DNA of 2,313 bases from Escherichia coli (GCF_024223415.1 NZ_CP100508.1); one strand, 5' to 3'. Positions 492-2,160 are shown, counted from the stretch's first letter. Translations and numbers: made by a program. The notes: a model not told the origin generated them from the sequence alone.

Positions 492-557
492 TGTAACGTG
501 TAGAAGATACACCTGTAACGTGTACAGGATACACCTGTAACGTGTGGGCGGTATTCG
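492..557. repeat. Iteron array: 22-bp direct repeats, two near-identical units plus one degenerate unit
   Basis: Unit 1 at 492-513 TGTAACGTGTAGAAGATACACC and unit 2 at 514-535 TGTAACGTGTACAGGATACACC are head-to-tail and 20/22 identical. Unit 3 at 536-557 TGTAACGTGTGGGCGGTATTCG keeps only the first 10 bp. The array ends about 80 bp upstream of the rep start codon. Confidence 0.8.
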
Positions 558-568
558 CGTAATCTATA

Positions 569-636: not shown

Positions 637-1134
637 ATGAACATTACTGAAAGAACGGATAGCAAGAAAAAAGTTTTAAGACAAAATATTACTGAGGTTA
701 TAGATAGAGAAACTGGAAACGTAACACAAGAAATAACCGATATAACAGTTCAATTTCCACAAGAACCTGCGTATGTGAAAATTTATATTGATAATTTATG
801 TGCTGTCACAAAAGCACCTGATTCTCTAAAAGATGTTTTATTTTTAATTCTTAGGAAATTGGATTATGACGGATATATTGCATTATCAACTAGATACCGT
901 AAGGAGATCTGTAAATTATTGGGAATAAAAGACGGAACATTACGTAACAGATTGTATTCATTATCAAAAATGGGGATTATTGCTAGTTGTGGCGGTAATG
1001 AATATCAGGCAAACCCTAATTTATTTGCTCGTGGTGAATGGAAAAAAATAATTGAACAGCGTCGCGAGTTTGAAATGAGAATTAAATATTCACCTAACGG
1101 TGAAACTATTATAACAACCGAAGAAATAAAATAA
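637..1134 (+). CDS. Putative plasmid replication initiator, small single winged-helix protein, RepL-like (165 aa)
   Basis: Intact ATG(637)..TAA(1132-1134) ORF from the six-frame track. AAAGG Shine-Dalgarno at 625-629, 7 nt before the ATG. Central segment DVLFLILRKLDYDGYIALSTRYRKEICKLLGIKDGTLRNRLYSLSKMGII reads as a winged helix-turn-helix. Overall size and layout (YVKIYI hydrophobic block, HTH, C-terminal NPNLFARGEWKK) resemble the RepL family (Pfam PF05732) as I recall it; this is from memory, not a search. Lies directly downstream of 22-bp tandem iterons. AT-rich codon usage matches the surrounding module. Confidence 0.7.
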   Translation: MNITERTDSKKKVLRQNITEVIDRETGNVTQEITDITVQFPQEPAYVKIYIDNLCAVTKAPDSLKDVLFLILRKLDYDGYIALSTRYRKEICKLLGIKDGTLRNRLYSLSKMGIIASCGGNEYQANPNLFARGEWKKIIEQRREFEMRIKYSPNGETIITTEEIK

Positions 1135-1143
1135 TGCGCACCT

Positions 1144-1173
1144 AAATAAGGTCTTTTTAAAAAGACCTTATTT
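1144..1173. terminator. Candidate bidirectional intrinsic terminator between convergent rep and RHH genes (perfect 30-bp palindrome)
   Basis: AAATAAGGTCTTTTT (1144-1158) is the exact reverse complement of AAAAAGACCTTATTT (1159-1173). It starts 10 bp after the rep stop codon and overlaps the RHH gene stop codon (1168-1170). The hairpin is AU-rich with a weak U-tract, so termination efficiency is uncertain. Confidence 0.5.
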
Positions 1174-1593
1174 GAATAAATCCGAACCTGGATATTTATT
1201 TTTATGTAGCCTTTTTATTATTTTTATTTCATCCTTTATTAAATCCATTTCATTATATATATCAGAAATTCGCTTCGTTACTATTTTCATTTCATCGCAA
1301 AGTAAAATTATTTTATGCATCACCTCGAGGTACTCTTTATCCTTCGGCCGCTTTCCCTTATCAAATAATTTTTTCTGCATCCGACCAAGTCGGATTAATT
1401 CATATAAATACCTGGAAGGTACGCGCTGTTTTATTTCATTATTTAAACTTGCCGTCCTGATATATTCTGAAATTGTCAGTCCTTCGTTCTTCGCTCGCCG
1501 TCTGATTTCGCTTGCAAGTCTGTTATTTACTCTAAGGGTGATAACCTTAGTTCTCTGCCGTACTTCTGAACCACTACGTTTATTTTTAGCCAT
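1168..1593 (-). CDS. Ribbon-helix-helix domain protein, MobC/MbeC-like relaxosome accessory protein or CopG-like plasmid regulator (141 aa from ATG at 1593; the track ORF 1168..1692 uses an upstream GTG)
   Basis: Minus-strand ORF ending in TAA (complement of 1168-1170). N-terminal KVITLRVNNRLASEIRRRAKNEGLTISEYIRTASLN matches the RHH pattern (beta-strand, helix, G, helix with S.SEYIR) typical of MobC/MbeC/CopG proteins. C-terminal half is K/E-rich and helical. Start at ATG 1593 preferred: GGAGAG Shine-Dalgarno lies 8 nt upstream on the minus strand (complement of 1602-1607), whereas the 33-codon extension to GTG 1692 is GC-richer than the gene body and has no properly spaced RBS. Confidence 0.65.
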   Translation of the reverse strand: MAKNKRSGSEVRQRTKVITLRVNNRLASEIRRRAKNEGLTISEYIRTASLNNEIKQRVPSRYLYELIRLGRMQKKLFDKGKRPKDKEYLEVMHKIILLCDEMKIVTKRISDIYNEMDLIKDEIKIIKRLHKNKYPGSDLFK

Positions 1594-1662
1594 CGCAATG
1601 ACTCTCCATTTTGCACGTTTGGGGTGTCGGGGCTTGCCCTGACAGGAGGTATTCTCATGCAA

Positions 1663-1690
1663 GCGAATGTATTCGCGGTATGACGAATAC
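1663..1690 (-). promoter_or_regulatory. Inverted-repeat cluster upstream of the RHH gene (candidate operator)
   Basis: GCGAAT (1663-1668) / ATTCGC (1671-1676) form a 6-bp inverted repeat with a 2-nt spacer. GTATTCG (1669-1675) / CGAATAC (1684-1690) form an overlapping 7-bp inverted repeat with an 8-nt spacer. Located 70-100 bp upstream of ATG 1593 on the minus strand. RHH proteins commonly autoregulate through such repeats, but no clean -35/-10 pair was found. Confidence 0.3.
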
Positions 1691-2160
1691 ACATCCTATC
1701 CCATTTTCCGCTGCAACTTTTCAACGAAAATAAAATACCGCGTCGTAACCTAGTATTTCTGATACAAAAAAATGATGCTTCATTCAATATTATTTATACA
1801 GATTTTAAAAATTATTGATTGTTATTTAATAAATAACACCGAATTAATTGATGTCTTTGTTGTCTGTCGTTTGTAGATTATTAGAGGAATAAAGATTAGA
1901 TCTTCTTGGTTATATAATCCATTGCCTGTTGGTAATGCGGGATTCGTCCAGAGAGCAGGAGGCAAAAGAGCAAGATGGTAGCATATGCATAAAATATAAC
2001 TATGTGAGTTATTGATATCGCGTTTATATATTAAAAATATAACTTAACGTCGCTCCTAATCTTTATTTCATCCTGGCAATGGGAGCATTAATCCCCGTGC
2101 AGTGCTCCGCCAGCTGCTGACAACCTCGACATATAACCATCGATACGATAGAACATCAGG

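Follow-up and report, generated by a model that had tools for sequence, protein, structure and literature searches.

The transfer modules of the IncI1 plasmid R64 and of the other I-complex plasmids are built from an origin of transfer (oriT) followed by nikA and nikB, and both genes are essential for transfer of R64 and of pCTX-M3 (PMC6112013). The R64 oriT core, according to Furuya & Komano 1997 as cited in PMC4743918, comprises the nick region and repeat A, the site bound by NikA, with precise location required. In a second group of plasmids, which includes pCERC7, NTP16, pU302S and pEC34A, nikA lies beside an R64-like oriT with no nikB, according to the summaries in PMC9282650 and PMC10123127; one of these nikA-only plasmids, NTP16, is mobilized by R64 (Moran & Hall 2017, as relayed in PMC9282650). 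Plasmids that obtain their relaxase in trans are described in general as pOriT (PMC10123127). Here, we describe a 2,313-nucleotide (nt) stretch of Escherichia coli DNA (GCF_024223415.1, NZ_CP100508.1; the whole stretch is hereafter the window), in which a gene on the minus strand at 1168-1593, nikA, probably encodes the oriT-specific accessory protein of a mobilization module that has no relaxase of its own. This module would consist of nikA, an IncI-type oriT at 1621-1701 and a leading region, with NikB borrowed, a reading to which we assign a probability of roughly 0.8. Judged from its sequence, the plasmid most likely spreads with a relaxase and a mating channel that are provided by a large IncI-complex plasmid.

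With the oriT-nikA-nikB modules of R64 and the I-complex, the window shares the protein family (50% identity), the gene position, the nick core, the outer hairpin and the spacing. It differs from them in having no nikB, coupling protein or type IV secretion system (T4SS), in the sequences of repeats A and B, and in a NikA that carries an extra C-terminal helix of ~38 residues. Like the pCERC7 group, the window pairs its own accessory protein with what would be a borrowed relaxase, and has the same nick core at the same 78 nt between GGGGTGTCGGGG and the predicted nick site (nic). However, the replicon of the pCERC7 group is ColE1-like, with RNA I/II and Rop, whereas that of the window has a RepL-like Rep with iterons; NikA in that group is ~108-115 amino acids (aa) long and lacks the extension, whereas the window NikA has 141 aa and is 36-42% identical to it; the inner repeats differ; and the group is typed mobilizable or pOriT, whereas the window family is typed non-mobilizable. 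The arrangement of nikA and oriT without nikB is already known from pCERC7, NTP16 and pU302S, and the window is a separate lineage, distinguished by its RepL replicon and its NikA extension. A literature search found no paper describing the transfer module of the window family.

The window also answers to the description of a pOriT plasmid: its oriT is a homologue of one found on a conjugative plasmid, and it has no relaxase gene. The oriT-only pOriT plasmids pBuzz and pEC156, with R64- or B/O-type oriTs, similarly depend on a helper relaxase and T4SS, but they mimic the NikA-binding repeat of the helper and encode no accessory protein, whereas the window combines divergent repeats with a matching NikA. 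Repeat A of pEC156 is almost identical to that of R64 (PMC4743918). Finally, the MobC and MbeC proteins of ColE1-type MOBP5/HEN and MOBQ plasmids resemble the window NikA in being ribbon-helix-helix (RHH) relaxosome accessory proteins encoded beside oriT; they belong to Pfam PF05713 and are encoded with their own relaxase, whereas the window NikA belongs to a different family and has no relaxase. The features of the module are listed below, with a slash marking nic.

1168-1593, minus strand: nikA (annotated mobA), a 141-aa relaxosome accessory protein without a partner relaxase, as judged from Pfam, NCBIfam, sequence identity and substitution rates.
1441-1578, minus strand: RHH DNA-binding domain (aa 6-51), matching PDB 2BA3 with E 1.4e-6; AlphaFold2 (AF2) places helices at 24-36 and 41-49, preceded by a strand-forming segment.
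1528-1551, minus strand: beta-strand KVITLRVN of the RHH domain, with a different sequence in each NikA lineage.
1306-1404, minus strand: conserved NikA C-domain (aa 64-96) with the motif ELxRLGxxQKxLF..GKR..DKEY, the best-conserved part across lineages.
1171-1284, minus strand: family-specific C-terminal extension (aa 104-141), absent from IncI, IncK2 and ColE1-group NikAs.
1625-1644, plus strand: outer GC hairpin of oriT (GTCGGGGC..GCCCTGAC), common to all I-complex oriTs aligned.
1648-1690, plus strand: inner inverted repeat of oriT, the probable NikA binding site by its conservation, paired arm changes and spacing; it consists of a distal arm (1648-1660), a central palindrome GCGAATGTATTCGC (1663-1676) and a proximal arm (1677-1690).
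1690-1701, plus strand: nick core CACATCCTA/TCC, with predicted nic at 1698/1699.
1699-2060, plus strand: AT-rich leading region with no open reading frame (ORF) > 47 aa, predicted to be the first DNA to enter a recipient.

The nikA ORF runs from an ATG at 1593..1591 to a stop codon at 1170..1168, with GGAG 10 nt upstream of the ATG; a mechanical ORF list extends it up to a GTG at 1692, but conservation and all annotations favor the ATG at 1593. It is a real gene under purifying selection. The ratio of nonsynonymous to synonymous substitution rates (dN/dS) is 0.15-0.25 overall against relatives with dS of 0.05-1.15 and 0.13-0.20 for the last 38 codons alone, and the ORF is intact in all family members. 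RefSeq annotates near-identical plasmids with two genes, a RepL-like rep and 'mobA, plasmid mobilization protein MobA', the latter being the same coding sequence as our ORF; one submitter named this second gene nikA. The Pfam family NikA-like (PF21983) matches the protein with an E value of 2.1e-15 over model positions 1-70 of 72, and the protein reaches 96.1 bits for NCBIfam MobA (NF041264; cutoff 80). In contrast, Pfam MobC (PF05713) is absent among the matches at E <= 10, CopG_antitoxin (9.7e-4) and DUF6290 are marginal, and NCBIfam RelB_antitoxin reaches 22 bits against a cutoff of 50, with TraJ likewise far under its cutoff. A preliminary description of the window had called the gene an RHH, MobC-like orphan and proposed a search for MobC and CopG families; of that label the RHH part stands, with aa 6-51 aligning with PDB 2BA3, the solved N-terminal RHH domain NikA(1-51) of R64, while the MobC part gives way to NikA/MobA. 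By BLASTP, aa 6-103 are 50% identical to the NikA encoded by an IncI-gamma/K1 plasmid. When 72,556 plasmids (PLSDB) were searched in translation, ~2,800 records had homologues, mostly nikA of conjugative I-complex plasmids, and none of these conjugative I-complex NikAs exceeds ~50% identity to the window NikA. On the strength of these matches, the protein is an RHH accessory protein of the NikA family.

Conservation across the NikA lineages is concentrated in the C-domain (55-64% identity), with lower values in the RHH domain (39-52%) and the linker (17-25%). The C-domain invariants L69, G70, Q73, L76 and Y88 are present in the window NikA, as are all eight invariant columns of a 23-sequence alignment, and its C-domain motif reads LGxLQKxLF...EY. 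This region may form the surface that contacts the partner NikB, or an oligomerization surface. In RHH proteins, the beta-strand is the DNA-reading element. It reads KVITLR in the window's family and has other sequences in the IncI, IncK2 and ColE1-group NikAs. The C-terminal extension is conserved within the family, with the motif EMDL..EIKIIK...KNKYPGS.LF, and the AF2 model (mean predicted local distance difference test score, pLDDT, of 85) has it lengthen the last helix of the C-domain into one helix spanning aa 86-133, over which pLDDT is ~81-96 in means of 10-residue blocks. The model suggests a longer oligomerization or partner-binding helix. A distant, also C-terminally extended NikA of 152 aa (P0045; 43% identical) is encoded on two contigs of ~2.8 kb (L023 and L024), beside a DUF29 gene and an oriT of the same build, with the relaxase absent; the outer arms of that oriT are ColE1/IncI-group-like, and its central palindrome GCGAATGTATTCGC is identical to that of the window.

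Directly upstream of nikA, as in IncI plasmids, lies the IncI-type oriT, which on the plus strand at 1621-1701 reads GGGGTGTCGGGGCTTGCCCTGAC AGGA GGTATTCTCATGC AA GCGAATGTATTCGC GGTATGACGAATAC ACATCCTA/TCC. It was aligned with the oriTs of IncI-gamma/K1, IncK2, a pCERC7-type ColE1-like nikA plasmid and another IncK2/Z-typed plasmid. The core CACATCCTG/TCC and the outer GC hairpin are common to every lineage aligned; the 78-nt spacing from GGGGTGTCGGGG to nic is found in IncI-gamma/K1 as well and becomes 76 nt in IncK2; and the proximal arm of the inner repeat stops 8 nt short of nic in each lineage. The sequence of the inner repeat differs lineage by lineage. The inverted repeats that the preliminary description had marked at 1663-1690 are real and form part of this inner repeat. 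On the plus strand, oriT folds as the two expected hairpins with a z score of -3.6, compared with -7.3 for an IncI reference. No other 40 nt of the module are as well conserved within the family as the inner repeat, which shows 100% and 95% identity in two relatives whose coding sequences are 72-97% and 60-85% identical per 40 nt. In the two most divergent members, a change of GTATTC to GTATTT in the distal arm is paired with a change of GAATAC to AAATAC in the proximal arm, and the inverted repeat is preserved. As read from the aligned lineages, NikA and the inner repeat change together around a fixed nick core. The leading region is 86-98% conserved even in a member whose rep region is only 34-44% identical, a level that exceeds the conservation of nikA, and may carry signals that act on the single strand as it enters, for example priming sites or single-strand promoters. 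Positions 2190-2290 of pEC21Z144-85K (L025), a conjugative plasmid typed IncK2/Z, hold a further inner-repeat variant, GGTAATCGTATAGCC...GGTTATACGATTAC, and an unchanged nick core; a shared Inc type therefore does not guarantee identical NikA-binding repeats among I-complex plasmids.

The lack of a relaxase gene, noted for the window in the preliminary description, extends to the entire plasmid. Several records of 2313 bp, from E. coli and E. fergusonii, align end to end with the window at 99.2-99.7% identity; for roughly a dozen records of 2310-2312 bp the identity is 96-97.5%. Because records of the same length match end to end, the window is a complete circular plasmid of 2313 bp, and therefore no sequence exists outside its ends, where the preliminary description would have had us look for a relaxase or partner gene; both are excluded. 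The whole circle contains no relaxase gene, and nikB is not found directly downstream of nikA, where a hairpin is followed by the convergent rep instead. In a database of 5.8 billion proteins, no homologue-bearing contig carries a relaxase, the longest such contig being 8.7 kb. Close homologues (>=73% identity) all lie on contigs of <= 8.7 kb, where the other genes encode small Rep proteins or unknowns. The relaxase-less state is old and maintained, since dS exceeds 1 among members and nikA is under purifying selection. Of 5,426 complete E. coli genomes, 45 carry the module, in each case on small plasmids; some strains contain two or three different family members, and the nikA-oriT-leading region travels onto plasmids with unrelated rep genes. 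The longer contigs with family NikAs, which come from metagenomes and draft genomes (L012, 8665 bp; L017, 5155 bp; L018, 4322 bp; L019, 4043 bp), consist of head-to-tail runs of two to three different NikA and Rep units, which are either assembly chimeras formed via shared modules or true heteromultimers from exchange between two oriTs. The longest of them, L012, also has at ~2776 on its minus strand an extra IncI-like oriT (CAAACGGAATATCGTCGCGGGTGACGGTATTACATTTGCACATCCTG) without an adjacent nikA.

The strongest evidence that an I-complex relaxase acts on the oriT of the window family, indirect but strong, comes from two natural cointegrates. In pTMSA992, an IncK2 plasmid with blaCMY-2 that is typed conjugative, MOBP and mating pair formation class I (MPF_I), a whole small plasmid lies between the nikA-relaxase operon and a yggA-like gene. 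At the left junction, IncK2 nikA and IncK2 repeats lead through CACATCCTG into the leading region of the small plasmid; at the right junction, the small-plasmid nikA and its own repeats lead through CACATCCTG into the IncK2 sequence TCCCGTTTTTCA. This insert spans one unit length (2312 bp) and, compared with the window rotated at nic, shows 96.6% identity. The corresponding position of another IncK2 plasmid, p5312.29, is occupied by a unit of 2328 bp that represents a different family member (68.5% identity with the window overall, 72.5% for NikA); there, too, both junctions fall inside the 12-nt core. The empty site, rebuilt from the IncK2-derived halves, occurs uninterrupted at 279/279 identity in at least 25 plasmids that lack the insert, among them five sibling IncK2 plasmids from the study in PMC5350095; the exchange was thus precise and neither added nor removed a base. 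The insert-free IncK2/Z plasmid L025 was considered as the parental site and dropped, as it bears a different inner-repeat variant; the site was rebuilt from the cointegrate halves.

From their sequences, the pTMSA992 and p5312.29 inserts are two independent events, and two independent events at one site favor the action of a relaxase. A 12-bp identity is very short for RecA-dependent exchange. The NikB protein of R64 catalyzes recombination between two oriTs, according to Furuya & Komano 2003 as cited in PMC4902927. The study in PMC5350095 reports a '2.3 kb fragment between yggA and nikA' in two IncK2 blaCMY-2 plasmids and states that insertion/deletion events were confirmed by polymerase chain reaction (PCR) and Sanger sequencing; oriT is never mentioned in its text. 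The preliminary description had suggested mobilization in trans by a relaxase from elsewhere, and this finds good support in the IncI-type oriT together with the two IncK2 cointegrates at the nick core.

These features fit a mechanism in which NikA would bind the plasmid's own inner repeat (1648-1690) and bend or open the DNA, thereby presenting the nick core to a MOBP relaxase of the NikB type, which an I-complex plasmid in the same cell would provide in trans. The helper NikB would be recruited through the conserved C-domain (aa 64-96) and would cut the plus strand after CATCCTG, at 1698/1699. The coupling protein and MPF_I T4SS of the helper would then export the strand, such that sequence from 1699 onward enters the recipient first and nikA last. 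The plasmid would carry its own NikA because its inner repeats differ from those of every helper while the nick core is shared. IncK2 is indicated indirectly as a helper by the cointegrates, and IncI1, I-gamma, K and B/O plasmids share the same core and are candidates by sequence. A bolder extension, which we consider rather doubtful, is that the extended NikA marks an old relaxase-less lineage, distinct from the pCERC7 group, that regularly inserts itself into helper oriTs by relaxase-catalyzed exchange, its extra helix being adapted to capture a foreign NikB or to compete with the helper NikA. If so, the product would be a conjugative cointegrate with two hybrid oriTs, each with a different NikA, and the small plasmid would be carried by the large one.

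Several observations count against a module that works with a borrowed I-complex NikB. In strain EC21Z-147, which holds three family members, none of the nine plasmid records checked is an IncI1, K or B/O plasmid. The strain has conjugative IncF and IncI2 plasmids as well as MOBQ and MOBP plasmids, with a MOBP relaxase typed on its 128-kb IncF plasmid. The IncK2/Z plasmid NZ_CP101225.1 was ruled out as a co-resident helper, as it belongs to the sister strain EC21Z-144, and IncI2 was rejected as an obvious helper, as it uses MobC and the IncI2 oriT region of EC21Z-147 is without the core. MOB-suite types 34 of 34 free family plasmids in PLSDB as non-mobilizable, and a scan of 1100-1800 found no consensus sigma-70 promoter for nikA. 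The cointegrates could, in principle, have arisen by recombination on 12-bp microhomology without any relaxase. Lastly, 28 of 29 modules read CATCCTG at the nick core, and the window alone has A1698 (ATCCTA), where the other 28 and all I-complex oriTs have G; this is the last base of the ATCCTG core, directly 5' of the predicted cut.

That substitution is the basis of an alternative in which the module works in the family at large, but the window copy is transfer-defective or weakened by the G-to-A change, leaving its nikA a stranded accessory gene. In vitro, cleavage by MOBP relaxases requires ATCCTG, and the cut falls immediately 3' of this sequence (PMC3772185); since the base directly 5' of the cut is altered, the window copy may be impaired. 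A1698 occurs in a single module of the 29 and is one of only seven differences from the closest relative, pPK8275-2.3kb (the others being at 103, 593, 1011, 1752, 1797 and 1875). It could, however, be a sequencing error, and the remainder of the window module is intact; we regard a defective copy as unlikely, though well short of negligible. The preliminary description had also offered a role for the protein as a CopG-like copy-number or transcription regulator of the replicon, to which an autorepressor with no transfer role may be added. The RHH fold, the weak CopG_antitoxin, TraJ and RelB matches, and a Gene Ontology term for regulation of transcription from the Prokaryotic Genome Annotation Pipeline are compatible with such a regulator, as is the recurrence of the oriT 9-mer GTATTCGCG at 551-559, within a degenerate third iteron upstream of rep. 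Yet neither p25155 (97% identical) nor any other member has the second GTATTCGCG, and recurrence of some oriT 9-mer elsewhere is expected by chance (mean 1.1 hits, P ~0.56). The CopG and RelB matches are far under threshold and far below the NikA-family scores, and nikA is convergent with rep rather than upstream of it and travels with oriT onto plasmids with unrelated rep, all of which makes a purely regulatory protein very improbable.

Two further proposals treat nikA as the survivor of a broken pair. In one, also raised in the preliminary description, the protein is the leftover antitoxin or centromere-binding half of a toxin-antitoxin or partition system whose partner was lost. RHH proteins do serve as antitoxins and as ParG, and RelB_antitoxin and DUF6290 give weak matches, but all such family matches are sub-threshold, no partner gene, be it a conserved small toxin or ParA/ParF, appears in ~30 contexts examined, and the conserved NikA C-domain motifs and strong purifying selection speak against an orphaned antitoxin, so that this origin is extremely unlikely. 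In the other, nikA is the decaying remnant of a nikAB operon after deletion of nikB, and pOriT plasmids have been proposed to arise often via deletion of the relaxase gene (PMC10123127). A dN/dS of ~0.15 with dS > 1 between members instead indicates an old nikB-less state with a maintained gene; every member has an intact ORF, and neither common frameshifted or truncated alleles nor a dN/dS near 1 were observed. Conservation is higher in the oriT repeats than in the coding sequence, and no conjugative PLSDB plasmid has a NikA closer than ~50% identity. Decay is thus highly unlikely, and a maintained NikA that works with a borrowed NikB is the reading that we prefer.

Mobility calls based on the presence of a relaxase, or on a limited oriT library, label the window family non-mobilizable, while its sequence points to plasmids that ride on the IncI complex. 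In E. coli from poultry and humans, I-complex helpers are among the main carriers of extended-spectrum beta-lactamase and AmpC genes; ~1,900 conjugative PLSDB records share the compatible oriT junction. The IncK2 blaCMY-2 plasmids of PMC5350095 may be read as precise cointegrates between two oriTs, that is, as a natural record of relaxase-mediated recombination between helper and hitchhiker. Such cointegrates show a route by which small cryptic replicons enter resistance plasmids and add a second replicon. In addition, four to five sets of NikA beta-strand and inner repeat around one invariant nick core offer a natural experiment on specificity.

The remainder of the plasmid lies outside the transfer module and includes the following features.

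492-562, plus strand: three 22-bp iterons upstream of rep, the context of the replicon.
637-1134, plus strand: rep, encoding a RepL-like protein of 165 aa (Pfam RepL E 1.9e-4; RefSeq RepL).
1144-1173: palindromic hairpin with a 14-bp stem between the convergent rep and nikA, a probable bidirectional terminator.

The convergence of nikA with rep, as first described, is confirmed. The terminator that the two genes were said to share fares less evenly: the hairpin at 1144-1173 is a perfect palindrome between the two stop codons, with folding energies of -15.1 and -16.2 kcal/mol and z scores of -5.3 on the plus and -4.1 on the minus strand, but a consensus promoter and terminator scan of 1100-1800 made no call, as the hairpin fails its GC and T-tract rules. 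Besides rep and nikA, the whole circle has no conserved or annotated ORF > ~60 aa. An Rfam scan of the window gave a single sub-threshold snoRNA match and no RNA I/II, and the replicon is therefore not ColE1-type.

A GC-rich segment of ~460 bp spans the circle junction (2234-2313 and 1-381), with 58-77% GC versus 23-40% for most of the plasmid. It shares 85-89% identity with hundreds of ~1.5-kb E. coli plasmids bearing a different, helix-turn-helix (HTH) rep. Since the 2.3-kb family and the ~1.5-kb HTH-rep plasmids are both typed 'Col(MG828)', the typing marker is probably located in the GC-rich segment rather than in rep. A perfect 13-bp inverted repeat (2161-2173 and 2212-2224) lies just upstream of this segment, and the segment contains repeated CCGGAAAC motifs. 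Near-identical copies of 2310 bp have been deposited under Klebsiella pneumoniae and Actinobacillus pleuropneumoniae, and a related 1.5-kb plasmid under Corynebacterium renale; these records reflect either a broad host range or contamination of the records with E. coli.

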